64,000 nucleotides of DNA, taken from positions 32,001 to 96,000 of IMG/VR virus record IMGVR_UViG_3300033074_001674; one strand, given 5' to 3'. Below are positions 1 through 14,042 of the stretch, piece by piece. Position 1 is the stretch's first letter. Each line of letters opens with the position of its first letter. The DNA is from a virus. Its lineage: Duplodnaviria; Caudoviricetes. The position numbers and the translations under genes are program-made. Under the pieces are notes generated by a model. That model worked only from the letters and a program-made list of their open reading frames with translations. It ran no database searches and had not been told where the DNA came from.

Positions 1-252
1 GATTTTTGCTTAGTGGCGTGCGGTCCAAACGCTAGGCTTTTAAGCGTACTATCACTGGCACATGCTAGTCTATCCGATGATAGAAGCATCAAATCTTCTA
101 TCTATAAAAGAATAAATTATAATGGTGGATTAAATAGCATGACAATATGTGAAATGCGCGAAATGGTCAGACCAAAAATTAAGCTGCCAACTACCAGAGA
201 AATCCTTATAATGGAAATTTCAGAAGTAGCCGATGTACCATCTAATATTTAA
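1..252 (+). CDS. CGPNA-family small protein (paralog 1, 5'-truncated by the window edge)
   Basis: Frame is open from base 1: DFCLVACGPNARLLSVLSLAHASL, matching the family motif. Confidence 0.7.
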   Translation, partial: DFCLVACGPNARLLSVLSLAHASLSDDRSIKSSIYKRINYNGGLNSMTICEMREMVRPKIKLPTTREILIMEISEVADVPSNI

Positions 253-526
253 ATTAGAGCCAGGCGAAGAATCTTGTGCGCTAGCACTAGCCAATCCAAG
301 AAAAGTGACTTTAAAATCTGTGCTAAATGAGGCCATAGAAGGTCTAAAGGCTTTTGGCGACAGAGAAGCTCTATTAAATAGTATAACTGAGACACAAAAA
401 TTATTTGATGCATGGAGATATCTATCTATCAATGAAATTATATACAGATTTGGGAGTAGTGACAAAATTGGTTTTAAATTGGAAAATGCTACTACATTAA
501 GAATTATATTAAAATGTATAAAATAA
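233..526 (+). CDS. CGPNA-family small protein (paralog 2, divergent)
   Basis: EESCALALANPRKVTLKSVLNEAIEGL; closest to 4945..5220. Confidence 0.65.
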   Translation: MYHLIFKLEPGEESCALALANPRKVTLKSVLNEAIEGLKAFGDREALLNSITETQKLFDAWRYLSINEIIYRFGSSDKIGFKLENATTLRIILKCIK

Positions 527-774
527 CACTAGAATGTAGATGTGACAAAAAGTGCGGCACATGCACACTTTATTGTGGCCCAAATGCCAAACTGAAAGAT
601 GTACTACAGGTTGCCGCAAATAACCTTGAGGCAGATATTAAACGCGAACATCTAACATTTAGAATCAAAGATAGGATACTGTTCGGAGGGCATTGGAACA
701 AAAGTACAATAAGTAGCCTTGTTGCAGACATGCTTCCCGTTAATGGAATTTATATTTATAGGGAGAAACTATAA
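514..774 (+). CDS. CGPNA-family small protein (paralog 3)
   Basis: CTLYCGPNAKLKDVLQVAANNL. Confidence 0.75.
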   Translation: MYKITLECRCDKKCGTCTLYCGPNAKLKDVLQVAANNLEADIKREHLTFRIKDRILFGGHWNKSTISSLVADMLPVNGIYIYREKL

Positions 775-1262
775 TGCCGCTTTTTATTAAGTGCTCTCTT
801 TGTGAGCAGTTTCATCAAAAACACAATGAGCCGCTTAGAAGGTGCGGCAAATTGGTATTTATTCCTGCCTACGGATGGATTGAATGGAGCGCGGATGCTG
901 CGGTCAATATTAATTTTGGGAGAGCCATGAATACAAGAGCACTTTGTAGATATTGTAGAAGGTATCACACGGCATTTGAGGATTGTGTGCCGGGATATCA
1001 AGTAGCTGGCGTGCCTAAAACAATAGGAAATAAAGAAACAGAAAAATTATTGCCTGTGCGCACAGATAAAGATTCCAGCAATACGACCACGACCGGCGCG
1101 GAAAATCCAATTAGAGTAGAGCGGGTATATATCGGTGGCGCTAAGCAAGAGCAGCCTGAGCCCACTCCGATTAAACAAATAGAGCCACGCCAAACAACGA
1201 AGGATGTTGTTAAGGAAATATTAAAGAGGATTGAGGCGGCCAAATGTCTAGAAGCAACTTAG
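774..1262 (+). CDS. hypothetical protein with putative Zn-binding N-terminus
   Basis: CSLC and CRYC pairs, low-complexity C-terminus; TAATG coupling to the upstream gene. Confidence 0.6.
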   Translation: MPLFIKCSLCEQFHQKHNEPLRRCGKLVFIPAYGWIEWSADAAVNINFGRAMNTRALCRYCRRYHTAFEDCVPGYQVAGVPKTIGNKETEKLLPVRTDKDSSNTTTTGAENPIRVERVYIGGAKQEQPEPTPIKQIEPRQTTKDVVKEILKRIEAAKCLEAT

Positions 1263-1441
1263 ACATCTATAGAGAATCCAAAGATAGAATGAGGAGAGCT
1301 AAAAATCTATTCATGACCACGCACGAATGGAAGATAGCTAGGGGATTGGCAGAGCCTAAAGACCATTCTTGGATTTGGAAGATATTACTATGCGCCGCCG
1401 CATTTATATTGGCGGCGAACATGTGGAGATTATCACCTTAA
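1244..1441 (+). CDS. small membrane protein
   Basis: C-terminal hydrophobic segment IWKILLCAAAFILAA. Confidence 0.55.
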   Translation: MSRSNLDIYRESKDRMRRAKNLFMTTHEWKIARGLAEPKDHSWIWKILLCAAAFILAANMWRLSP

Positions 1442-1657
1442 ATGAGCCACTTAAAAGTACTATTATGGTTAGCAGATAGTGAGTGCGAGCTCGCTTGTGG
1501 AGAAAATACGAGGGTTAGAGATGTTTTAAGAACTGCGGCTAATAATACGTCAGGAGATATTAGAGCTGCGCTTTATGATGTTGCTGAGGTTTTGCCGAAC
1601 ATGTTCATTAAAGAATGGATTGATGTTTCAAAGGACATGATTCTTATGGCGATGTAG
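1442..1657 (+). CDS. CGPNA-family small protein (paralog 4, short)
   Basis: SECELACGENTRVRDVLRTAANNT. Confidence 0.7.
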   Translation: MSHLKVLLWLADSECELACGENTRVRDVLRTAANNTSGDIRAALYDVAEVLPNMFIKEWIDVSKDMILMAM

Positions 1658-1874
1658 AGTTTTCCGTAATCGTAACTACTCAGAATCCGGATGACGGCTC
1701 ATTTGAAATTGAAATGGGAAAATACAAAAAGAAACTAAAAGAATGGAACGATTGGAACAAAGAACACGCAGAGGAAATAGCTGCGCTTAAAAAAGAACGG
1801 GCTGCGAAGAAAAAAGAAAATAAAGCACTAATACGTGAACTTCAAAAAGAAATAGAGAAATTAAAACGAGAACA

Positions 1875-2330
1875 ATGACACGACTATTATTATTGTTGTT
1901 CATGCTAATCGTCCCCGGCTGCTCCTGGATTCAGCCATCATTTATTAGCGAAAACAGTTATAGTGTAGCATCAGTAGATTCAGGAGAGAATCTCGGTGGA
2001 CATTTTGATGAAGATGACAATTGGGTTCCTGATAATCCAGATATATCTCTGACATATAAAATACCCGATATATCTAGCGGCATTATATTCGATGCAAGCG
2101 ATTTCAAAGTCACTCCAACTCTCCAGGTGGAGTTATTTGAATTTGACACACATATCCCATACGTTAATAGGCTCGTGGTAGATTTTGGCGTAGGGTATCA
2201 ACGGACATTTATTTATGTTGGCAAACTGTGGACTTCAATATTTGAGATAACAACTGGTGGTTTCGTTGGATGGGACTGGGAAGAAAAAGACCTGTCCTAT
2301 GGCATAGGGGCAACAATAATAAGGTTCTAA
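1875..2330 (+). CDS. putative lipoprotein with beta-strand-rich C-terminus
   Basis: Signal peptide with VPGC lipobox; amphipathic strands ending LSYGIGATIIRF. Confidence 0.65.
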   Translation: MTRLLLLLFMLIVPGCSWIQPSFISENSYSVASVDSGENLGGHFDEDDNWVPDNPDISLTYKIPDISSGIIFDASDFKVTPTLQVELFEFDTHIPYVNRLVVDFGVGYQRTFIYVGKLWTSIFEITTGGFVGWDWEEKDLSYGIGATIIRF

Positions 2331-2331
2331 T

Positions 2332-3201
2332 ATGAGCTATATCCTTAACAAAAATGGTCTTCAAAAAGCAAAGACTGCAAATGGCTTAAATGGCGCTCAT
2401 GCCGACGCATATCGCATCAAATATGATTTTCTTGGCGATGATATGGTAAAGTTGGAATCTTTTGAAAACCAAGCTTGTTTTTCGCAAATGCCATCACAAA
2501 TATTAAAGCACAGAGATAAAGTCAAATATATTAGGCTTTATCATAGAATGCCATTGCCAACGCCAAATTGGCCAGACATGGAACAGGATGTTATATGGTG
2601 GCTCAGCAAGGCCCTTGAGGAAGGAGGACTAATCCTATCAACAAAAGACACAACTGGATGGGATATATATACGGATGGACTCACAATCCCATTAAGCCAT
2701 CCGCTTGCCACAATAGATAAAGTGTATATCGCCGGCACAATACTGCGGATGCCAAATGAATTTAGCGCCATGGTAAGGACCACTATACATTTAGTCAAAA
2801 ATTGCTCGGTCCCGTTCTGGCCTGCTTTTTATTACACGCATGGACAATTTAATGTGGGGACTGGCCATTCATTCTTAAGCTTGGGCACATCTCCTTACTA
2901 TAAAGGCTATAGATTATCTTTGGATGGAGTAAAAGAATTCCATTCATACATGAAGGATAGAAAAGTAAAGATGTCCCGCATAGAAGATATGATTAATAAA
3001 GCAGCGCCTAAACAATACAATGCATGGGACTGGCATGGCACTGCCAATATTGTCACGCCAACAACCAAAAGTGCGGCAGTTAGCGATGCCATCAAAACAA
3101 TTTACCCGCCAATACGAGACTATTTGAACGAAATTGACCCAGGCAAGTTAGACTCTATCTATAAAGAAATTCAATCTCTAGACCATACAAAAGAGGCGTA
3201 A
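2332..3201 (+). CDS. hypothetical protein (289 aa)
   Basis: Long ORF packed directly against its neighbours; no motif recognised. Confidence 0.7.
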   Translation: MSYILNKNGLQKAKTANGLNGAHADAYRIKYDFLGDDMVKLESFENQACFSQMPSQILKHRDKVKYIRLYHRMPLPTPNWPDMEQDVIWWLSKALEEGGLILSTKDTTGWDIYTDGLTIPLSHPLATIDKVYIAGTILRMPNEFSAMVRTTIHLVKNCSVPFWPAFYYTHGQFNVGTGHSFLSLGTSPYYKGYRLSLDGVKEFHSYMKDRKVKMSRIEDMINKAAPKQYNAWDWHGTANIVTPTTKSAAVSDAIKTIYPPIRDYLNEIDPGKLDSIYKEIQSLDHTKEA

Positions 3202-3888
3202 ATGTACTGTTTAGTTGTAGGTGGTGCAATGGGATATTTTATTCCAGCCAACCATTTGGGATTAATCCCGACTGATGACCTATCTATTCTTAACACGCCA
3301 GAAAAAGTGAAGTTAGCCATTTTTACAGGCGGTGAGGATGTTGACCCATCTCTGTACGGCCACGTCATGGATAGAACAACAGGCTCTAATATAAGAAGAG
3401 ACAAGTATGAAGTTGGTGCATTCCACGCATTAAAGGAATTTAATATACCAAAGGTGGGAATATGTAGGGGCGCACAGTTTTTGTGCGTGATGGCTGGCGG
3501 GTCATTAATCCAAGATGTAACAGGTCATGGGTCGAACCATTACCTTGTATTTAGGGATAAAGATGGCGCGATGAAAAAGTCGCCAGAGAAGGTTACATCC
3601 ACACATCACCAAATGCAATATCCATGGGATTTGCCGGAGGATAATTTTAAGGTTTTGGCCGGCTCTCCTAGCCCAATCTCTAATCATTATGTGTGGAATA
3701 ATCGCAAGTATTATTCAAATCAATTGGAGATTCCTCAGCAGTTCTGGGTAGAACCGGATGTTGTGCATTATCCGAAAATTAATGCGCTGGGCATACAATA
3801 TCATCCAGAGTGGATGCCCGAGAATTCGTGGGGGATGATATACGCAAGAGGCTTAATAAGTAGTCTTGTGAATGGCGATGACATATAG
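3202..3888 (+). CDS. class I glutamine amidotransferase, peptidase C26 (gamma-glutamyl hydrolase-like)
   Basis: TGGEDVDP, GICRGAQ (catalytic Cys), STHHQ, GIQYHPE (His-Glu). Confidence 0.9.
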   Translation: MYCLVVGGAMGYFIPANHLGLIPTDDLSILNTPEKVKLAIFTGGEDVDPSLYGHVMDRTTGSNIRRDKYEVGAFHALKEFNIPKVGICRGAQFLCVMAGGSLIQDVTGHGSNHYLVFRDKDGAMKKSPEKVTSTHHQMQYPWDLPEDNFKVLAGSPSPISNHYVWNNRKYYSNQLEIPQQFWVEPDVVHYPKINALGIQYHPEWMPENSWGMIYARGLISSLVNGDDI

Positions 3889-4171
3889 AGTTAATATAAC
3901 CTATGCGATGCAATCATGCGAGTTGCTTTGTGGAGAAAATGCAAAACTACTAAAAATATTTAGTGTTGCATATCGAAACTTAACATCCATAGCTATGGAT
4001 AGAAATAGGAGCTCCCTAGCAAGCAAAATTTATACTCTAATATTAGCGTTTGAAAGGTCAGCTGAAACTATTTCTTATATAGATAAGGAATGGACAAAAA
4101 AATACGACATGGTGATTCTTAGAGAAGGATACCTGGGACAAGGAGTTTACTTGACATGGGAATACGCATGA
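3872..4171 (+). CDS. CGPNA-family small protein (paralog 5)
   Basis: QSCELLCGENAKLLKIFSVAYRNL. Confidence 0.7.
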   Translation: MAMTYRVNITYAMQSCELLCGENAKLLKIFSVAYRNLTSIAMDRNRSSLASKIYTLILAFERSAETISYIDKEWTKKYDMVILREGYLGQGVYLTWEYA

Positions 4172-4653
4172 AATATGCTCCTATTAATATTGTGAGAGTT
4201 AATAGAGATAGTACGCTAGGAAAACTGGCTTTAAATGTGATGGACTCTCATAATAATGGTAGAATAACGCAAGAATCACTAGACATGTTCCGCGAAGATT
4301 ATTCTCTCCTGGAAGACTTTCAATATCACACAGTGATTATGGCCGCAATCTTTAAGGGTGAGGTCATAGGAATATCTGCTGGAGTTGTTGATGGGTTCGA
4401 AATGCTTAATGGCATTACAGTGGTACATCAAAAATACAGGAGATTAGGTGTTGGTTTCAAGCTTATGATGGCAAAAGCTAAAGAAATAAGTAACTATTTC
4501 CCAAATGTAAAAATCGCGACAAAGGTCGCAGCCAACAATATCCCATCGATGAGGTCACTAATTAAGGCTAACTTTAAGGCGACAGAAATCACAACACACA
4601 GAAAAAACAACGGGTCGCTGGTAGACTGTTTTACATTTACGTGGCCCAAATGA
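4168..4653 (+). CDS. GNAT-family N-acetyltransferase
   Basis: Motif A VHQKYRRLGVG and motif B NIPS; ATG at 4168 overlaps the upstream TGA. Confidence 0.8.
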   Translation: MKYAPINIVRVNRDSTLGKLALNVMDSHNNGRITQESLDMFREDYSLLEDFQYHTVIMAAIFKGEVIGISAGVVDGFEMLNGITVVHQKYRRLGVGFKLMMAKAKEISNYFPNVKIATKVAANNIPSMRSLIKANFKATEITTHRKNNGSLVDCFTFTWPK

Positions 4654-4967
4654 TTTGTAGACTATATGTAGATGGCTCTAACACACAGAAGTGTTACTTG
4701 CGTATCAGAGATGATAAAATCGAATATGTGACATACAATGATATTTTAAAGGTCGCTTACGACAATTTAAGATGCGACCCACTAAGGTGGAATTTTGCTT
4801 GCGCAATAAATGATGAGATTGGTAAAAGATGGACAAAAGGAATACCTTTTAAGTTTGGATATAAAACGGCGCCTATCGCACTTTTCGACGCGTACATTAA
4901 CCCAGATTCCCCACATATGAATAGAATAGTATTGGCTCAATATAATGGTGAAATTAATCATCGCTAA
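4650..4967 (+). CDS. CGPNA-family small protein (paralog 6, divergent)
   Basis: QKCYLRIRDD...VTYNDILKVAYDNL; ATGA overlap with the upstream gene. Confidence 0.6.
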   Translation: MICRLYVDGSNTQKCYLRIRDDKIEYVTYNDILKVAYDNLRCDPLRWNFACAINDEIGKRWTKGIPFKFGYKTAPIALFDAYINPDSPHMNRIVLAQYNGEINHR

Positions 4968-5220
4968 TGAGGAGTGTGAACTTGCGCTTAAAGATGACGC
5001 GCTAAACAAAATAACATATCTAATGATATTAGATGAGGCAGAGAGAGGATTAATACATACAGGAGATAGACAGAGCTTATTGAAAGCGATTAAATATTGC
5101 AAATCAAGGCCTTGGGCAAATGACAGAACGCTTATGGCAATAAAAGAAACGGAAGATTTAGTTCTTTATGGTGGATATGTGTTGACGTTACAACGAGGGC
5201 CGGAAATAGTATCGAACTGA
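4945..5220 (+). CDS. CGPNA-family small protein (paralog 7, divergent)
   Basis: EECELALKDD...ITYLMILDEAERGL...GDRQSLL. Confidence 0.6.
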   Translation: MVKLIIANEECELALKDDALNKITYLMILDEAERGLIHTGDRQSLLKAIKYCKSRPWANDRTLMAIKETEDLVLYGGYVLTLQRGPEIVSN

Positions 5221-5567
5221 TAAGTAAGAGCAAAACTAGCAGGCCGTGGTTGAGCGCTGGCCACGTTAAAAAGCGTTCAAACTTAAAGTGCCAAGACCAC
5301 TTCAAAGTCTTATCGGGGTGGACGGACTCGTGCCGCTCGCCTCAGCGCTCTAAGCGCCGCTGCCTAATTAGCGTTATTTATTAGGGTGGCTCCTCAGCGC
5401 ACAATCTGAGGAGTTACAGCACATCGAGTCGAGAAGCTGTGACTATTTAGACTTGCGTTGCGCATTAAGAGGTAAATGCGATATTTCGTCAACTAGAAAA
5501 GTTGTCTAAGCCTGTAGAAAGTTTGCAATTTTTATCAGTGACCCGGGGGCAGTACCCGGCCGGTCCA
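5197..5567 (+). ncRNA. ssrA: tmRNA, one-piece; tag AKTTSKSYRGGRTRAARLSALSAAA* at 5290-5367
   Basis: Acceptor stem GGGCCGG (5197-5203) / CCGGTCC (5560-5566) with G3.U wobble and discriminator A; T-arm CCGGG-GGCAGTA-CCCGG; P2 helix ACTGATAA/TTATCAGT; pseudoknot CGTGG/CCACG plus TGAGCGCT/AGCGTTCA before a GCC resume codon; tag ends AAA-stop. Confidence 0.93.
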
Positions 5568-5588
5568 TTTAATTATTGGAAGAATATT

Positions 5589-5867
5589 ATGGAATTCCTA
5601 GAGTTTAAATTGTGGACTAGCACCATACCACAAGAGACGTGCATAATTAGGTGTGGGCACAAAGCATCTTTCGATAAAGTGATTTTAACCGCGCTTGAGA
5701 ATACCCCTCACGAAAAACTAAAAAAAGAATTAAAGATTGTGTGCGAAAATTATTGCAACAGAGGATATTCAGTTAAAGGATATTGGGATGTGTCACAAAG
5801 ACAGGGGAGAGAATACCGAAGCATACTAAGGGAAATAGAGATACTGTGCAGAATAGTTAGGGATTAA
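5589..5867 (+). CDS. CGPNA-family small protein (paralog 8)
   Basis: ETCIIRCGHKASFDKVILTALENT; start moved to ATG 5589, downstream of the tmRNA. Confidence 0.65.
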   Translation: MEFLEFKLWTSTIPQETCIIRCGHKASFDKVILTALENTPHEKLKKELKIVCENYCNRGYSVKGYWDVSQRQGREYRSILREIEILCRIVRD

Positions 5868-5868
5868 C

Positions 5869-6162
5869 GTGGGTAAATATTTTAAAATTACTCTTAGTTG
5901 TAGGGACCTAAATGAAGAATGCTTAATTCATGCAGGGCCTAATGCCACTATGGCAAAAGCCGTGAATTCTACTTTAGATTTTATAAAAGATAAATGTCCT
6001 CGTCTTGCAATTATCCTTAAATCATATAAGTTACAAGGCAAGAGATTTTATAATCATAAATTATGCGATGCCTATGGTATAGTGTGTAGATACGGCCCAT
6101 ATGAATCACATTTTGACTATAACCAACCACAAGTTAGCTACACTATAGAAATGCGAAGCTAA
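5869..6162 (+). CDS. CGPNA-family small protein (paralog 9)
   Basis: EECLIHAGPNATMAKAVNSTL. Confidence 0.7.
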   Translation: MGKYFKITLSCRDLNEECLIHAGPNATMAKAVNSTLDFIKDKCPRLAIILKSYKLQGKRFYNHKLCDAYGIVCRYGPYESHFDYNQPQVSYTIEMRS

Positions 6163-6258
6163 CTTAATTACATTACAATTACTAGCGCCCGCGCAGCGGC
6201 AACGAAATAACATTAGAGCACAATGACGTGCGGTCTGCAAGCTAAAAGGAGCTGCGCT

Positions 6259-6624
6259 ATGAATAGAGGAGATATTTTTGAGTTTAACGGCGATAGATTT
6301 GTTGCTCGCGACACTAGCGGGACCACAGTTGTGGCGTCAAAGCTAGGTCTCGACAAGAATGGAGTTGAGCATCCACGAGTTGGAAAGCCTCGCACATTCA
6401 AGAATCTTGACGCGAAGGTTGTTGGTTTTATGAAGTTAGTTGATAGGAGAAAGCCCGGCACTGGACACACTTCATTTGTGGAGTCACCAACAGATGAGGA
6501 TGAAGCATCTGGCGAATCTCCTGAGGAGGCACCTGCAGAGGATTCATGGGAAGAGATACAGCGCAAGAAGAAGGTTGTAGAAAATCTTATGAAGCTGACA
6601 GGCGATGGGCCAAGCGAGTGGTAG
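6259..6624 (+). CDS. hypothetical protein with acidic linker
   Basis: AAGGAG RBS before ATG 6259. Confidence 0.65.
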   Translation: MNRGDIFEFNGDRFVARDTSGTTVVASKLGLDKNGVEHPRVGKPRTFKNLDAKVVGFMKLVDRRKPGTGHTSFVESPTDEDEASGESPEEAPAEDSWEEIQRKKKVVENLMKLTGDGPSEW

Positions 6625-6686
6625 TGTAGGGCTGCATGGGACGGGTCCGGCATACCCTTATCAGGTGTCGGGAATAATGGAGATTT

Positions 6687-7007
6687 ATGAATTATTTTGT
6701 TGTAAAAATCTCAGATATAAACGGAGATTCCTGCGAGATTAAATGCGGACCATCTGCCACTTTGCGAAGCATACTTAAAAACGCTGCTGACAATCTAGAT
6801 GCGGACAGGAGTTTAAGTAAGGCGATTATAAGCGTGTGTGGATGCGATTTTGATTCCTGGAACCGACAAATTCGTAATATTGGAAAACATTTCATTATGG
6901 CTAGCGGCGACAATTTAATTATGTTCAAAATAACAGAGATGGTAGAATTTACATCAATGAAGTGGGATAATCATTTTAACATGACATGGAGCAGTGTTCG
7001 TCAATGA
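6687..7007 (+). CDS. CGPNA-family small protein (paralog 10)
   Basis: MNYFVVKISDINGDSCEIKCGPSATLRSILKNAADNL; GGAG RBS. Confidence 0.75.
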   Translation: MNYFVVKISDINGDSCEIKCGPSATLRSILKNAADNLDADRSLSKAIISVCGCDFDSWNRQIRNIGKHFIMASGDNLIMFKITEMVEFTSMKWDNHFNMTWSSVRQ

Positions 7008-7672
7008 AAAAACTACTCCTAATATTAATGTTTGTGATTTCTGGCTGCTCAACAACTAGAAAAACAGACGCGCTAGTAAGCAAGTTTTTATTACCAGTCA
7101 ATGTTGTTGCTGCATATTTTTCCAGCGTAGCTATACATGAGGCTGGCCATGCATGTGGCGGATGTTTGACAGGAGCATACAAATCAGACATTGATGTTGT
7201 TCCAGTCAAAAAGCAAGGCAAGTGGCACCTTGGCTATACTACTAATTATTACAGGCCAGGCACATTATCAAGGTCTGATGAATATATAACGAATTCGTTT
7301 GGGCCCGCTGCCCAGTATCTAGGACACCTTGGATGTAGAGCACTTCTTGAAACAGATAGTGTGCCAAGATTACTCCAACCATTTCTAGGCTGGTTAGACT
7401 TGTTTAATGTGATAGGATATTACTCTCACGTTTTTCAAGGTCTAATTAGAATAGACGAACAATCAGACCTTGTTAAATTAGACCCGTGGGTCTCGTGGGT
7501 AATGCTCGGAGGAGGTCTAGCAATAGATATTCTTGATATAATCTTCATTGATGATGACTTTTCAAAGCGCTTTAAGGTTCTGTTCGGCGAGGATTTTTAT
7601 GAGGCAAAAGAGGACAGACAAATAAGTCTTATCACTACGCCAGGCTTCTTCGGAATAAGATTGGAGTGGTAA
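7004..7672 (+). CDS. membrane/lipoprotein zinc metallopeptidase (M50-like HExxH)
   Basis: MKKLLLILMFVISGC lipobox; AIHEAGH; FGP motif; hydrophobic segments. Confidence 0.65.
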   Translation: MKKLLLILMFVISGCSTTRKTDALVSKFLLPVNVVAAYFSSVAIHEAGHACGGCLTGAYKSDIDVVPVKKQGKWHLGYTTNYYRPGTLSRSDEYITNSFGPAAQYLGHLGCRALLETDSVPRLLQPFLGWLDLFNVIGYYSHVFQGLIRIDEQSDLVKLDPWVSWVMLGGGLAIDILDIIFIDDDFSKRFKVLFGEDFYEAKEDRQISLITTPGFFGIRLEW

Positions 7673-8074
7673 ATGAATTTGAATCATATAGTTCAAATTG
7701 AGGTTGGAGATAGTGGCGGGGATGGACATGGCAAACATGAAACATTCACATATAGCTGCACTCACGATTCATTTGAAGTAAAACAGGCCTTTAAAAAAGG
7801 GACTGATATATTAGGCTTTGATATTACCAAATATTGTGATGCTTATGAAGATAATAGTATACCGCAAGATGTGTACGAAAAGCTAGTAGAGCTTAATGCT
7901 GTTCCAGAATGGCTAATTAGCGATGTTGATGAATTTGAAGAAGAGCCATACGTGGACGCTGAGACATACGCTAACATTTACATGCTTACGGCACAAAAGG
8001 GGCTGCCAGAACTTCGTTATACTATGAGAAGAAACCCGGCAATCAAGGCCGGAGGATACGGATTATTTAGTTAA
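7673..8074 (+). CDS. conserved phage hypothetical protein
   Basis: GDSGGDGHGKHE near N-terminus and GGYGLF at C-terminus, a pattern typical of large-phage hypotheticals. Confidence 0.65.
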   Translation: MNLNHIVQIEVGDSGGDGHGKHETFTYSCTHDSFEVKQAFKKGTDILGFDITKYCDAYEDNSIPQDVYEKLVELNAVPEWLISDVDEFEEEPYVDAETYANIYMLTAQKGLPELRYTMRRNPAIKAGGYGLFS

Positions 8075-8196
8075 AATAGAAACACTTGAGACAGAAACAA
8101 TACTAAGAACTTATATGGTTGCATCAGAAAAGCCGCTACATGTAGAAGAATTGAAAATCTTGGCCGTCAAAGAAATAGAAGTGCAGAGCAAGCAAA

Positions 8197-8433
8197 ATGA
8201 GAGAGCTTAAAAAAATTGCAACGTTCGGCCTTTCATTAAATTTATATTTTATACAAGATGGCGAATATTTATATCCAGAAATTCATGTTGAAGGCCATGC
8301 AGGTACTGGTGGAAAATTTGATGGTCAGTGCATGTCAAAAGAAGATATAAAAGATTTAGGTTTGGCATTAGTTGAGTTTGCCGCATCATTGCCAGATGAT
8401 AAGTATCAATCATTTCAGAAAACAAACAGGTGA
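8197..8433 (+). CDS. hypothetical protein
   Basis: ORF in the co-directional run. Confidence 0.55.
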   Translation: MRELKKIATFGLSLNLYFIQDGEYLYPEIHVEGHAGTGGKFDGQCMSKEDIKDLGLALVEFAASLPDDKYQSFQKTNR

Positions 8434-8678
8434 AAATCACAATGAATGTCTACACAATGACCACAGAAGATATGACTAGAAATGCAAATCAAATTAAAGA
8501 GATTGTGATTTGCTCCCTAGAAAGAGAAGGATTGCTAAATAGACCATCAAAAGAAATATGTGATAATTACATTATTTCACTTGGCAAACCTAGCATTTTT
8601 GGCAATGCAATGAAACTTGTGCTTGGCGGTAAAGATGATTCTCCGCGTTTTATATTTTCAAAGGTAGTCAATAAATGA
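8430..8678 (+). CDS. hypothetical protein
   Basis: GTGA overlap with the upstream gene. Confidence 0.55.
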   Translation: MKITMNVYTMTTEDMTRNANQIKEIVICSLEREGLLNRPSKEICDNYIISLGKPSIFGNAMKLVLGGKDDSPRFIFSKVVNK

Positions 8679-9013
8679 GGGATATCCTAATATCTTTAAT
8701 CCTGTTGATAACAATTGCTACTACAGGATGTCCTCCAACCAGTTTAAATGTGCATGGCACGATTACGAGAATGACCAGAGTGATAAATATTCCAGATGGT
8801 AGTCAATCTGTATTGGTTGAGGTGACATGTAATCAGAATAAGTTTATTGGGAGATTCGACGGCGGAGCGGCTGCTGCAATAAATAGCAGTGGCATTAACA
8901 TAGGAGACGCGGTAATCTTTAGCGCGATAGATAGTAATATTACCAATATGGAGACTGTCTTGTCGGATGACAAATTAATTGTTGTGGAGGGACAAGATTG
9001 GTTCAAAGATTAA
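8675..9013 (+). CDS. putative lipoprotein
   Basis: MRDILISLILLITIATTGC. Confidence 0.6.
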   Translation: MRDILISLILLITIATTGCPPTSLNVHGTITRMTRVINIPDGSQSVLVEVTCNQNKFIGRFDGGAAAAINSSGINIGDAVIFSAIDSNITNMETVLSDDKLIVVEGQDWFKD

Positions 9014-9165
9014 TAAGAAGATTAAAAGAAAAATTATGTCTATTTTTTGGATTGCCTGCGCCACCAGGCAAAATGTCCGGAGGACTATGTGTAGAGCCAT
9101 ATTGTAAATGGCCGTATCATAGTCACGAGTTGTTCAGCAGCAAAAATAAGAATTAGGCAAATATC

Positions 9166-9528
9166 ATGAAAAAATTTCTATTTTTCGTCGCACTAATTTT
9201 AATCGCAGGATGCACTGTTGATAGACAGCATGAATTGCCATGGTACAATGACCGATATTGGTACATCAGAGTATTCGTGCCAGATGGTGGACACATCGAG
9301 GCGGATGTGGCATGTCCTTGTTCTGGAAGTAGAATGGTTGGTTCAGCATACATAGGGATGTATAAAAATAAAAGCATTCGCATCGAGCATTTCAATACTA
9401 GAACAGACATTACTATTTCAGAAATCAGTAAACAAGATGCCCTAAGAATTGTTGAGACTTTTTATCCATACAAAAAAGATATTTATATATACGATTTACA
9501 TCCAATGTTTAATACTGGAAGAAGATAG
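9166..9528 (+). CDS. putative lipoprotein
   Basis: MKKFLFFVALILIAGC lipobox. Confidence 0.65.
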   Translation: MKKFLFFVALILIAGCTVDRQHELPWYNDRYWYIRVFVPDGGHIEADVACPCSGSRMVGSAYIGMYKNKSIRIEHFNTRTDITISEISKQDALRIVETFYPYKKDIYIYDLHPMFNTGRR

Positions 9529-9531
9529 TAA

Positions 9532-10143
9532 ATGAAATCATATACATTTATTATTGATACAAATCAATACGCAGGAAATTTTGAAAGACAAATGTGCGCG
9601 TATATGACAGGCATGATTGGAGATTGTGGGGTTGGAGAAGAATATGCTGAAATGTATAAAAATTGTGGCCTTTCGCCAATGAAAGAACTGTTGACATATA
9701 AATCAGACGAACATGGCACTTATAGGCCCTGCGGGATATTTCCAACTCCTGGGTGGATAAATAATGGATATTCTCACTACAGAATAGATAATTTAGATGA
9801 GGAGAAAGCATTAGCCGAATACAATGAAAATGTAGAAAAAGAAGCAAAGAAAATTGAATCCCAAATATATCAAGGAGAAGATGCCGAGTACAGCAAGAAA
9901 CAAGCTGACCAATATAGGAAGAACTATAAAAGAGATAAATTACAGAAATGGCCAGCATACAATAGCGTGGGAATATATATGGTCGCAAGACCTACAGACA
10001 AAGAAATTGCTCTATTAAAGGAGCGGGCACACGCTTTTACATTGCTAAAAAGCAAACATCCATGGGAAGATTTTTCTAGCATTTCAATAGAAGGCTTTAG
10101 ATTACTTGTCGAAACTACATCAAGCCATTTAGAGGCAATATAA
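9532..10143 (+). CDS. conserved phage hypothetical protein
   Basis: IDTNQYAGNFERQMCAYMTG N-terminal motif. Confidence 0.7.
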   Translation: MKSYTFIIDTNQYAGNFERQMCAYMTGMIGDCGVGEEYAEMYKNCGLSPMKELLTYKSDEHGTYRPCGIFPTPGWINNGYSHYRIDNLDEEKALAEYNENVEKEAKKIESQIYQGEDAEYSKKQADQYRKNYKRDKLQKWPAYNSVGIYMVARPTDKEIALLKERAHAFTLLKSKHPWEDFSSISIEGFRLLVETTSSHLEAI

Positions 10144-10754
10144 TGAAATTGCCGCTAATTGACCAATTTAAGGCGCGCTGGAAGGATTGTAGCGGCTGTC
10201 GTCTTTCCAGAACACGCACTCAGGTTGTTTTCGGAGAAGGCAATCTAAATTCCCCTATTATGCTAGTTGGTGAAGCGCCAGGAGAACAAGAAGATAGAGA
10301 AGGCAAACCATTCTTTTCAGATGCTCCGGCCGGCTCTTATCTGAATAAGATATTAGCCGCACCTGGCGTGGAGATTAAACGAGATGACGTTTATATTACA
10401 AACACATGCCTGTGTCGTCCCTATGAAGGGGCAAAGAACAGGGCGCCACTAGTAGACGAAATCCAAGCATGTCAGGCTAGATTCTTTGAGGAAATTGAAA
10501 TTGTTCAGCCACAAATTTTGGTTTTGTGCGGCAACACGCCTCTGTTTATGGCGACCGGCAAGAAGGGCATTAGCAAATTGCATGGTAAATTGCCATTCGA
10601 GTTTAATACTCCCAACTGGACAGTATTTAATGTATTCGCTACATTCCATCCAGCGGCATTTATTTACGGCTCTCCGGCACAAATTGAATTTAAGAAGTCT
10701 TTAGCATATCAGGATTGGCAAGAAATAGCCCAAGTGTATCATAAGTTGGCGTAA
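10143..10754 (+). CDS. uracil-DNA glycosylase, family 4 (Fe-S)
   Basis: CSGCRL..TRTQVVFGEG, GEAPGEQED, TNTCLCRP, HPA. Confidence 0.92.
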   Translation: MKLPLIDQFKARWKDCSGCRLSRTRTQVVFGEGNLNSPIMLVGEAPGEQEDREGKPFFSDAPAGSYLNKILAAPGVEIKRDDVYITNTCLCRPYEGAKNRAPLVDEIQACQARFFEEIEIVQPQILVLCGNTPLFMATGKKGISKLHGKLPFEFNTPNWTVFNVFATFHPAAFIYGSPAQIEFKKSLAYQDWQEIAQVYHKLA

Positions 10755-10781
10755 GTTATTAAACGCCTAGATAGCAGGAAA

Positions 10782-11462
10782 ATGGGTCGCGACAGACATC
10801 AAAGGCCGCGTCAGAATATTAAGCGTGATATTGTAGTAACCCCAAAAACAGAAGGACAAAGAGAATACTTAGAAGCAATTGAAGAAGATGATTTAATCAT
10901 ATGCAGCGGCCCAGCAGGTACGGGCAAAACGATAGTTGCTATAGGCGCTGCTCTTTTATTAATGAGGAATAATCCACACAAGTACAAGAAGCTTATATTG
11001 GCGCGCCCGTATGTCGTTTTAGATGGAGAAGATATGGGCTTCTTGCCAGGAGATGCCAACGATAAGCTTCGGCCATTTATGATGCCACTTGTTGACAGTA
11101 TGAGTAAATTTGTAGACCAGGGCACAATCCAAACTATGTTCGGACATGGGGTTGTAGAATTCTTGCCAGTTGCCCATATGAGAGGCCGCACGTTTTCTGA
11201 CTGTATAGTCATTTTCGACGAAGCTCAGAACTCAAAAATCTCCCATATGAAAATGTTTCTCACTAGATTGGGAGATAATTGCAAAGCCATTATAGAGGGA
11301 GATGTTAAGCAAAGCGACCTAATTGGCCAAGATGCAGAAGATAATGGTCTTGCCTGGGCCCTATCTCGCCTTGATGGATTAGACGGCGTGAGTATTGTAC
11401 AAATGTTGGACGAAGATATAGTCAGGTCTTCAATAGTAAGAAGAATAATAAGTAGGCTATAA
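10782..11462 (+). CDS. phoH: PhoH-like ATPase
   Basis: GPAGTGKT, GFLPGD, MRGRTF, DEAQN, LTRLG, GDxxQSD, DIVRS. Confidence 0.95.
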   Translation: MGRDRHQRPRQNIKRDIVVTPKTEGQREYLEAIEEDDLIICSGPAGTGKTIVAIGAALLLMRNNPHKYKKLILARPYVVLDGEDMGFLPGDANDKLRPFMMPLVDSMSKFVDQGTIQTMFGHGVVEFLPVAHMRGRTFSDCIVIFDEAQNSKISHMKMFLTRLGDNCKAIIEGDVKQSDLIGQDAEDNGLAWALSRLDGLDGVSIVQMLDEDIVRSSIVRRIISRL

Positions 11463-11887
11463 TGGACAAATATGACACTTGTGTACTGTGCGGACACGTA
11501 AGATGCTGTCACCCAAGATATACTACAGATAAAAATTGTCTTGTGCCACAATGCAAGTGTACTCATGGAGTATACTCGCTTTTGGAATATTTCTGGGACA
11601 TTTATATGCCAGTGCATACAAAACCGCTAACAAAACTAATGCATTTTGCAGGATTAATGTCCACATTACTATATGTAATATTGATTTCTATATATGCTCC
11701 ATTATTCTTATTGCTAGCTACACCATTTGTTGTTTATCCATTTGCTTGGTCGGCTCATTTCTTTGTAGAGAAAAACAAGCCATTAGCGTTTAAAAATCCA
11801 CTATATGCCAAAGCATGCGATATAATGATGTGCGCAGGCATACTAACCGGCTTTATTAAGCTAGATTGTAAAGGACGTGGACGATAA
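11462..11887 (+). CDS. DUF962/Mpo1-like membrane protein
   Basis: H..P..KLMHFAG, YPFAWSAHFFVEKNKPLAFKNP. Confidence 0.75.
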   Translation: MDKYDTCVLCGHVRCCHPRYTTDKNCLVPQCKCTHGVYSLLEYFWDIYMPVHTKPLTKLMHFAGLMSTLLYVILISIYAPLFLLLATPFVVYPFAWSAHFFVEKNKPLAFKNPLYAKACDIMMCAGILTGFIKLDCKGRGR

Positions 11888-12098
11888 CATATATCACATC
11901 AATATAACGACTTATCAGGAATATCAAAGATTCCGTGAGTGGTTATTAAATAGAAATTTCGCAGAGAAGGCGTCTATCTACTTAAACGGTATAACTGTTG
12001 AATTTGCAGACCAATTACAACGCCTAATGTTTATAGCTGGGATGCAAGAGGGATTCCGAATCTCTCGCGAGGAAGGATTCTTCGAAGATGCCACTTAA
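11877..12098 (+). CDS. hypothetical protein
   Basis: ORF overlapping both neighbours. Confidence 0.5.
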   Translation: MDDNIYHINITTYQEYQRFREWLLNRNFAEKASIYLNGITVEFADQLQRLMFIAGMQEGFRISREEGFFEDAT

Positions 12099-12477
12099 AG
12101 GATGGAATCTAAACCTTAAACCAAAAGAAGTCAAGAAAAGGGCGCCGGCATTTTACGGCGTTCTCAAGCCAAAAGCAGATGAACAAACCAATTGGGACAA
12201 TTCAGCAGATAGATGGATAGGCAAGATAGTTTCTGCTAGCCAAGTTTATCCAGACCAAGATTGGCAAGATTGGATGGTTATTTCTCTGTGGGGAGAGCCA
12301 TCAAATTCAGACACAGAGCTATCTGTGATGGATACCTCATTCGTTCACAAGGATTATCTGGTGGAAATTCCACCATGCATATGTGATTCTAAACATTTAG
12401 CTAGTTATGGCTGTACGTGTGGCTGTATGGCTGCCGAAAAAATGTTTCATAAGCTAATAAAACTTGCACAAAAGTAA
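12088..12477 (+). CDS. hypothetical protein with Cys-rich C-terminus
   Basis: CICD...GCTCGC. Confidence 0.55.
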   Translation: MPLKGWNLNLKPKEVKKRAPAFYGVLKPKADEQTNWDNSADRWIGKIVSASQVYPDQDWQDWMVISLWGEPSNSDTELSVMDTSFVHKDYLVEIPPCICDSKHLASYGCTCGCMAAEKMFHKLIKLAQK

Positions 12478-12636
12478 AATACCGATGAACGTAATTATCG
12501 TAATTAACAAAAACACTCTATTAGTAGAGGAGGTTGTCGGTATATTCTTTACAGATTCTAGCGCAAAAGATTGGGCTAAAGACCATTACGATGGCAAGGA
12601 TAATTTATCATATAGCATAGAAAGAATACAACAGCC

Positions 12637-13179
12637 ATGACATGTAAGTCGATTTTAACCAATTTAGGAATGATGTATGCGGTTGGCATTGATGAGGATG
12701 ACCTAATTAAAATAGAGAATGTAAAAGAGGCCGGATGTTTAGTTAGAAGCACGTCAGCATACATGGACCCAGGTGGAATGCTTTATTTAAAATCTCCAAT
12801 AATGACGTTCCAGGTACATGGAGTTAATTTCGAGGTGCGGGCCGACAAGGCAGAGGGGATGCTTAGACTGCTAGATATGGCGCTAGATTTCGGCCCATAC
12901 AAAGCGTTCCCGTGTCATATTGGCTGGATGGTTGTGCCTCCGCACATGATTGATGGAATTAGGGAAGGACTGAAGAAAATCTCCTCAAGCGACGAAGCTT
13001 TGCATGCCCAATTAGACATTGAAGAAATTTTGTCAAATTGCCCATCAATTGTAAGAATGATTCCTACGGAAATAAATATAGAGAATGAAAAGAATTGTCC
13101 AGAATGTGGTGGAGAAATGTTCTCCGCATTAGAATTGATTTGTAATAAATGCTTTGAAAAGCGACAGGGCTCGTCTTAA
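12637..13179 (+). CDS. hypothetical protein with C-terminal Zn ribbon
   Basis: CPECGG...CNKC. Confidence 0.6.
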   Translation: MTCKSILTNLGMMYAVGIDEDDLIKIENVKEAGCLVRSTSAYMDPGGMLYLKSPIMTFQVHGVNFEVRADKAEGMLRLLDMALDFGPYKAFPCHIGWMVVPPHMIDGIREGLKKISSSDEALHAQLDIEEILSNCPSIVRMIPTEINIENEKNCPECGGEMFSALELICNKCFEKRQGSS

Positions 13180-13376
13180 TGGCCTCAAATGCTATTAGAA
13201 TAATAGAGTTAACACAACGTTTAGCAAAAGCCTCTAATGAGGCGGATGAACTTTATATAGCATGGCTTAGCAAGCTAACACAAGTGAAGGAGCATGCAGA
13301 AGAACTTAAATCTTTAATAGATAAGCAATTACGCCTGCCTAATATAACGCTGGAAGGGCTGGAAATAGATGGCTGA
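13179..13376 (+). CDS. small coiled-coil protein
   Basis: Heptad pattern; translational coupling. Confidence 0.55.
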   Translation: MASNAIRIIELTQRLAKASNEADELYIAWLSKLTQVKEHAEELKSLIDKQLRLPNITLEGLEIDG

Positions 13377-13701
13377 TACAATTGACCCATCAGATGAAAT
13401 ACCTGAAAATCAAAAAATTGAACTTATTAAAGCAATTGAAAGAATAGAAGCAATTCTAGATAGATTAGAGCAATGTCCCGCTATTGATGCTAGAGCTAAA
13501 GATATATTAGAAATAGCCCTATCTCTAATGGTTCAGCAAGTAACAGAGAATATAGCGTGGAAACCTCTCGATATTAATTCTCTTACAGAATTAGAAGATG
13601 ATGAGGATGAGGATGTTGATGAAGATATGGATGCGCCTTCTGCAAAAGAACTAAATGACTGGCTAAAGGAGTCGTGGCCAAATGGCGAAAATGACAATTG
13701 A
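13369..13701 (+). CDS. acidic hypothetical protein
   Basis: D/E-rich tract. Confidence 0.6.
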   Translation: MADTIDPSDEIPENQKIELIKAIERIEAILDRLEQCPAIDARAKDILEIALSLMVQQVTENIAWKPLDINSLTELEDDEDEDVDEDMDAPSAKELNDWLKESWPNGENDN

Positions 13702-13814
13702 GATTAACGATGGTGGGGATGTTGATGTAAATGTAGATGGTAAATTTGACCAAATAGCAATTCTAGGTGTTCTTAGACTTATAGAGCATCGCATTTTAAC
13801 TACAGGAGACGCAG

Positions 13815-14042
13815 ATGTCAGCAGCGCCGGACAAAATAGCAATAGCTAGAATGGCCGTATTGAACGTATTGAAGGCCAGAACAAAAATGAAGCCAGAGAG
13901 AATGGCCGAGCTAGCTGACGAGATATTGGGCTCAATCTCTCATTTGATTTCCTTAAATGAATCAAGCGGCAAAAAGCTTGGTGCAGTTGTTATGACGGAA
14001 TCCGCCGCTATAGATAGTCGCATTAAGCCAAGGCAAATCTAA
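13815..14042 (+). CDS. hypothetical protein
   Basis: AGGAG RBS. Confidence 0.55.
   Translation: MSAAPDKIAIARMAVLNVLKARTKMKPERMAELADEILGSISHLISLNESSGKKLGAVVMTESAAIDSRIKPRQI

Follow-up and report, generated by a model that had tools for sequence, protein, structure and literature searches.

Ten fast-diverging paralogous proteins arrayed in an uncultured phage and restricted to a single phage lineage

Background

Large phages and giant viruses carry lineage-specific families of small, fast-evolving paralogs devoted to host interaction, which are located in hyperplastic regions of their genomes. Small and fast-evolving accessory proteins of phages are moreover the main source of new anti-defence and host-takeover factors. 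The present work deals with an array of ten small paralogous open reading frames (ORFs) that opens a stretch of 64,000 nucleotides (hereafter, the window) belonging to a virus of the Caudoviricetes, and corresponding to bases 32001-96000 of the 165,893-bp IMG/VR record IMGVR_UViG_3300033074_001674 (CheckV completeness 74%). The initial annotation of this DNA proposed that the ten ORFs form one family with a possible beta-grasp or ubiquitin-like (Ubl) fold. The described bacterial systems to be considered in this context are the Bil-type Ubls and the other Ubls of E1/E2 operons (PDB 8tyz and 8tyx), which are encoded together with an E1, an E2 and a deubiquitinase (DUB) and are conjugated via a C-terminal Gly (PMC11601603).

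The phage is uncultured and is estimated to be large, roughly 220 kb, considering the length of the record and its 74% completeness. Near-identical or related DNA was retrieved from marine, seawater, aquatic and wastewater metagenomes originating from 11 studies, and the DnaE-like polymerase of this phage shares at most 30% identity with any GenBank phage. The array lies within positions 1-14,000 of the window, a single co-directional block on the + strand, mostly composed of small genes, with a flip of the GC skew near 14 kb. Overlapping starts and stops occur in the array block. Besides the family, it encodes a C26 amidotransferase, a GNAT, a transfer-messenger RNA (tmRNA) and three predicted lipoproteins, a content typical of accessory (host-interaction) regions rather than of structural or replication ones. 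Scans of the array block for sigma-70 and sigma-54 promoters did not exceed chance level.

Family membership and general characteristics of the proteins

The ten ORFs were all recovered on the + strand at the positions initially annotated (Table 1), and their assignment to one family was borne out by a leave-one-out test. In this test, a hidden Markov model (HMM) built from nine members was searched against the 1,328 stop-to-stop frames (at least 45 amino acids) of the whole record, and the member left out came first among about 1,319 frames in each of the ten trials, with E-values extending from 3e-11 to 0.046 and ORFs 5869 and 4650 at the weak end of this range. Pairwise BLASTP similarity among the ten ORFs is mainly found in the first ~40 residues, and the starts retained for the members at 4650 and 5589 agree with those of their orthologs in a related phage. 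The iterated HMM converged without drift and added a single ORF from the rest of the genome (G000:C1:13375-13707, + strand), located 18 kb before the window. This ORF was usually second-ranked in the leave-one-out trials, reaches E<1e-3 with relatives included in the profile, and carries the segment …I-L-I-K-C-G-H-E-T-T-W…. The adjoining genome ORF (13704-14000, + strand) is similar by eye only, through its segment …F-L-I-F-E-I-G-K-D-T-T-W…. On the basis of the leave-one-out and iterated HMM results, the phage carries ten clustered members and one remote member, perhaps two.

The Cys initially described as invariant is present in all ten members and conserved in at least 90% of the 27 members gathered. 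The motif proposed around it is less uniform: its full form, C-x-[LIV]-x-[CA]-G-x-x-[AT], occurs in seven of the ten proteins, the ORFs at 233, 4650 and 4945 being variants with insertions. All members are small (71-106 amino acids) and would be soluble proteins made of a single domain, and no signal peptide or membrane segment was found in any of them. Their isoelectric points (pI) extend from 4.7 to 9.1, with six basic members (8.5-9.1), three acidic ones (4.7, 5.3 and 6.7) and one near neutral (7.9). The six basic members, as well as the tmRNA embedded in the array, could evoke small nucleic-acid-binding regulators of transcription, of translation or of the handling of tmRNA/tRNA-like RNA. 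However, this charge is not conserved across the array, no match to helix-turn-helix, ribbon-helix-helix or known RNA-binding families was obtained, and the best PDB sequence-profile match, the ribosomal protein bL21m (E 0.035), was an isolated borderline one that we judged to be due to chance. We consider such a regulatory function quite improbable.

Table 1. Members of the family and interleaved or nearby features in the window (positions in nucleotides; dN/dS against the close relative; E, leave-one-out E-value)
Feature	Position	Strand	Length (aa)	E	dN/dS	Remarks
Member 1	1..252	+	94 (full gene)	1.2e-9	0.89	5' end cut by window edge; full gene is L002:1498-1782; L007 ortholog 73% identical
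Member 2	233..526	+	97	2.1e-6	0.57	Variant motif C-A-L-A-L-A-N-P, 2-residue insertion
Member 3	514..774	+	86	4e-11		Modelled with AF2; ortholog only 48% identical
Member 4	1442..1657	+	71	1.3e-6		Shortest; replaceable slot; L007 positional counterpart of 94 aa, 33% identical
Member 5	3872..4171	+	99	1.3e-8	0.76	Overlaps C26 gene end and GNAT gene start
Member 6	4650..4967	+	105	0.009	0.57	Ranked first but weak; divergent subtype, 4-residue insertion after beta2; ATG overlaps GNAT stop (ATGA)
Member 7	4945..5220	+	91	1.1e-4	0.56	Divergent subtype; last 8 codons overlap tmRNA 5' end
Member 8	5589..5867	+	92	4.4e-4	0.66	Start 19 nt past tmRNA, confirmed by L006 ortholog
Member 9	5869..6162	+	97	0.046		Ranked first, weakest E; GTG start; motif C-L-I-H-A-G-P-N-A; L006 protein 100% identical
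Member 10	6687..7007	+	106	3e-11		Longer C-terminal beta region; vs ortholog, N-part differs 9%, C-part 45%
Class-I glutamine amidotransferase / Peptidase_C26	3202..3888	+			0.07	PF07722 E 8.6e-18; phrog_7218 E 1.2e-32
GNAT-like acetyltransferase (weak)	4156..4653	+			0.06	PF00583 E 7.6e-4, 20.2 bits vs cut-off 20.7
tmRNA, full-length	5197..5570	+				Rfam RF00023, 77.7 bits; missed by ARAGORN
Predicted lipoprotein	1875-2330	+				Signal peptide ending in lipobox Cys
Predicted lipoprotein	6986-7672	+				Signal peptide ending in lipobox Cys
Predicted lipoprotein	8675-9013	+				Signal peptide ending in lipobox Cys

Predicted fold

The AlphaFold2 (AF2) model of member 3, built from 22 sequences, has a mean predicted local distance difference test (pLDDT) of 91.3 and a predicted template modelling score (pTM) of 0.81. 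It is composed of beta1 (residues 2-8), beta2 (16-21), alpha1 (27-38), alpha2 (42-57), a short alpha3 (59-63), beta3 (73-76) and beta4 (79-85), and the predicted helices match the layout proposed by the initial annotation. Its structural neighbours are nearly all beta-grasp domains dedicated to protein interaction (UFM1, the adaptor-binding domain of PI3K, UBL, RA and FERM F1), and 57-74 of its 86 residues superpose on Ubl-type beta-grasp domains at 2.7-3.4 Å. Similarly, the ESM Atlas model of member 3 shows template modelling scores of 0.69-0.72 to the UBX, TUG-UBL and ubiquitin clusters. The AF2 model of member 10, built from ten sequences, was mediocre (pLDDT 67), and member 7 is poorly modelled in the ESM Atlas (pLDDT 0.51), with helical, non-Ubl neighbours. 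Foldseek searches with both AF2 models against PDB and BFVD returned nothing at E<=0.001.

From these models, the fold of the family may be nearest to a beta-grasp with extra helices. As regards the Ubl proposal, the models of member 3 neighbour Ubl folds, with no link at the sequence level and no Foldseek match at the above threshold. If the likeness is real, the family would bring into the beta-grasp superfold a branch from phages that has no link with conjugation machinery. Considering the periodicity of the C-x-L-x-C segment, the conserved Cys probably faces the core like the conserved Leu, next to a nearly invariant Ala in helix 1, which suggests a role in packing rather than a catalytic or metal site. 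Member 3 also displays a cluster of five Cys, for which a Zn-binding role was ruled out by the absence of two of them in its ortholog.

Phyletic range and relatives

No model of Pfam, PHROG, NCBIfam or PADLOC matches any member of the family, and the literature searches brought up no comparable family described from phages. When the family profile was run against 1.84 billion representative proteins, it gave 14 matches, 12 of them being the window's own proteins or their orthologs on metagenomic contigs. Two giant tandem-repeat proteins, one of 3,240 amino acids with 39 matched stretches (E 3.6e-66) and its relative of 865 amino acids, were rejected as repeat-amplified noise, since a single repeat scores 12.9 bits (E ~1e4); these may be Bacteroidota SprB-type repeats. 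Over this set and a second one of 5.8 billion proteins, family members came only from the phage of the window and from a few contigs of Logan metagenomes. It had no blastn or tblastn match among 50,697 phage records, and a search of IMG/VR and JGI metagenome contigs via the neighbouring lipoprotein gene found nothing.

The relatives span a broad range of divergence. The closest one, represented by the contigs L006 and L007, has the same gene order as the window. A more distant one is known from a 2.4-kb fragment (L005) that contains three to four members. A third one, L008, is a 36.6-kb contig reached via the gene of the lipoprotein with an HExxH motif, with 33-68% identity between its conserved proteins and those of the window. 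The succession of a lipoprotein, a 292-amino-acid protein, the C26 amidotransferase, the GNAT, the tmRNA and the HExxH lipoprotein is kept in L008, surrounded by about nine family-like small ORFs which cannot be paired one to one with the members of the window, the best local identities being 20-37%. Three more distant phages (L009-L011) keep the lipoprotein gene, and no ORF closer than 10 kb to it belongs to the family. Judging from these comparisons (L005-L011), the array is old and limited to one phage lineage, stable in size and place and unstable in sequence.

Evolutionary rates, replaced slots and possible function

The proteins of the family are 33-85% identical to those of the close relative (one is 100% identical), as compared to 88-99% for the eight interleaved genes. 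The pairwise ratio of nonsynonymous to synonymous substitution rates (dN/dS, NG86) reaches 0.30-0.89 for nine members vs 0.05-0.19 for the eight neighbours, these figures being derived from one genome pair, among few genomes, and from short and partly overlapping genes. Divergence is also unevenly distributed along the proteins: in each of the nine variable pairs, the part beyond residue 45 is more divergent than residues 1-45 (pooled, 34% vs 24%, Fisher p 0.002).

Contigs from four runs were also aligned to the array stretch. On a 24.5-kb contig of one of these runs (X5), positions 1380-1887, corresponding to the slot of member 4, are swapped for 371 unrelated bases, and positions 3982-4066, inside member 5, are swapped for 89 unrelated bases. 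Both sites have collinear flanks and look like cassette-like replacement hot spots.

A dN/dS below 1 is compatible with diversifying as well as with relaxed selection, and the members could be weakly constrained and largely dispensable paralogs without specific targets, maintained under relaxed selection in a hyperplastic region. That no ratio exceeds 1, that slots are replaced, that orthologs become unrecognisable at moderate phage divergence and that L009-L011 keep the lipoprotein gene with no member close to it are all in line with such dispensability. Conversely, the ten frames are all intact, here and in the relative; about nine to ten copies and their positions persist across phages with conserved proteins as distant as those of L008; conservation is measurably higher in the scaffold half than in the C-terminal one; and the co-evolution signal was sufficient for the well-scored model of member 3 from only 22 sequences. 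On balance, we regard dispensability as unlikely.

We rather favour, at about an even chance, that the array constitutes a lineage-specific set of diversified protein-binding modules for host takeover or counter-defence. This reading is based on the conserved scaffold opposed to a variable C-terminal half, the elevated dN/dS, the replacement of slots and the restriction to a single lineage. The part kept as a scaffold under purifying selection would comprise a beta hairpin with the C-x-L-x-C/A face, probably buried, on its second strand, then a G-P/E-N-A turn capping helix 1, and helix 2. The variable, binding half, changing fast or being swapped, would consist of the C-terminal beta hairpin and its loops. 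Early in infection, every copy would attach to its own host (or phage) protein, so as to inhibit or redirect it. The binding, the targets, the timing and the anti-host role of the family are inferred.

The description of the family is secure; the results obtained here are its membership, its lineage restriction, its synteny, its fast, C-terminally biased divergence and, as a prediction, its fold. The family itself is undescribed and present in no curated library; the phenomenon, an array of fast-evolving paralogs in a phage accessory region, is a familiar one. At present, it is an ORFan family of an uncultured phage and not a demonstrated system. It nevertheless offers about ten natural variants of a single scaffold that is well modelled and whose variable half is delimited, which makes it convenient for target-fishing and for studying the diversification of binding modules.

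Relation to ubiquitin-type chemistry

In accordance with the initial claim that no member ends in Gly-Gly, none of the ten C-termini ends in Gly, and they are mutually unrelated. The Ubl families of Pfam gave no match at E<=1 for the ten members, PF00240 gave none in the genome at the same threshold, and the Ubl models of PADLOC and NCBIfam were not matched either. Alignment of the 27 members with ubiquitin using hhalign (ubiquitin sequence entered by hand) yielded a probability of 0.3%, in the register formerly proposed. No ThiF/E1 or Prok-JAB match was found in the 165,893 bp, a record whose partial completeness leaves the absence from the whole phage unproven. In sum, nothing ties the family to ubiquitin-type chemistry.

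It had been suggested that the proteins are non-conjugatable Ubl decoys blocking anti-phage systems based on E1, E2 or JAB proteins (Bil-type, CBASS Cap2/Cap3); considering the above results together, we find this very unlikely. A broader version of the idea, where the members would be an arsenal of non-conjugatable ubiquitin-fold proteins jamming different host proteins, such as parts of Ubl-conjugation or other defence systems, or else acceptors for the chemistry of the phage amidoligase, glutamine amidotransferases (GATases) and GNAT, appears unlikely as well. If true, such an arsenal or acceptor set would be the first diversified family of Ubl mimics in a bacteriophage.

A phage-borne cluster of E1/E2 type is present in one of the distant phages, L010 (L010:2184-5707, JGI 3300041081), where a 99-amino-acid ORF ending in ...DEKG, a Prok-E2_D-like gene (313 amino acids), a 496-amino-acid gene and a ThiF/E1-like gene lie in a row. 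L010 shares only the lipoprotein gene with the window and this cluster has no family member nearby; it has therefore no bearing on the Ubl question.

Interleaved and nearby genes

The C26, GNAT and tmRNA genes were all found interleaved with the members, in accordance with the initial annotation, the GNAT by a weak match. The tmRNA occupies the same array position in three phages (the window, L006:3298-3671 with 72.9 bits and L008:6128-6501 with 84.7 bits), and a 412-nucleotide contig from a sludge metatranscriptome library spans positions 5151-5562 with one mismatch. No RNA-library contig was placed on the family genes, which, for contig data, does not amount to a lack of expression.

Another reading is that the members serve the C26 and GNAT enzymes, as well as the amidoligase/GATase cluster encoded about 24 kb upstream, as substrates, carriers or regulatory subunits, altogether forming a phage protein-tagging module. 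The C26 stop overlaps the start of member 5, whose stop overlaps the GNAT start, and the GNAT stop overlaps the ATG of member 6; L006 and L008 both keep the order C26-GNAT-member-tmRNA; and an amidoligase and class-II GATases are found upstream in the relative L007. However, gene overlap is usual in compact phage operons and most members do not lie beside an enzyme gene, the family lacks a conserved C-terminus and an exposed acceptor motif, the conserved Cys is probably buried, and the C26 and GNAT genes of L008 abut with no member between them. A tagging module is in our opinion quite doubtful.

The upstream cluster (L007:276-3907, around 22-26 kb of the genome and upstream of the window) consists of an Amidoligase_2 gene between two class-II GATase (GATase_6/7) genes and is predicted to be an amide-bond-forming module. 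It is followed downstream by RuvB-like AAA, sigma70_r4-like, holin-like and PDZ genes.

Among the three predicted lipoproteins, the one of 228 amino acids contains a metalloprotease-like motif (AIHEAGH, of HExxH type), with a weak Peptidase_M50B match, and is the best-conserved marker of the phage lineage (23 homologs, 36-99% identity). The three lipoproteins are possible superinfection-exclusion or envelope-remodelling factors.

Two other genes of the block deserve mention. A 162-amino-acid Cys-rich protein (774-1262, + strand), with a C-x2-C … C-x2-C arrangement possibly forming a zinc ribbon and a weak phrog_23800 match, is kept beside family members in L007 and L008, where it is only 33% identical in the latter. 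A 133-amino-acid ORF with an acidic tail (6223-6624, + strand) is 99% identical between close relatives (dN/dS 0.05) and 63% in L008; a long ORF also exists on the opposite strand, and a 298-nucleotide contig of an RNA library spans positions 6305-6602.

Comparison with known systems

Like UFM1, ubiquitin, the UBL/UBX domains, the PI3K adaptor-binding domain and the RA/FERM-F1 domains, the family is predicted to combine a beta hairpin, a crossing helix and final strands. The word formed by its second strand, the following loop and helix 1 (h-x-h-x-x-P-x-x-T/A-h-x-x-h) resembles that of ubiquitin, and both would be small stand-alone interaction modules. Unlike the Bil-type Ubls, the family has no C-terminal Gly, no linked E1, E2 or DUB genes in the record and no PADLOC match. 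It is closer to the multigene families of large phages and giant viruses, with which it shares tandem paralogs of small size, distribution in a narrow clade, location in an accessory block, high dN/dS and cassette replacement. It differs from them in that the array keeps its size and position to an unusual degree in divergent relatives, as its sequences turn over.

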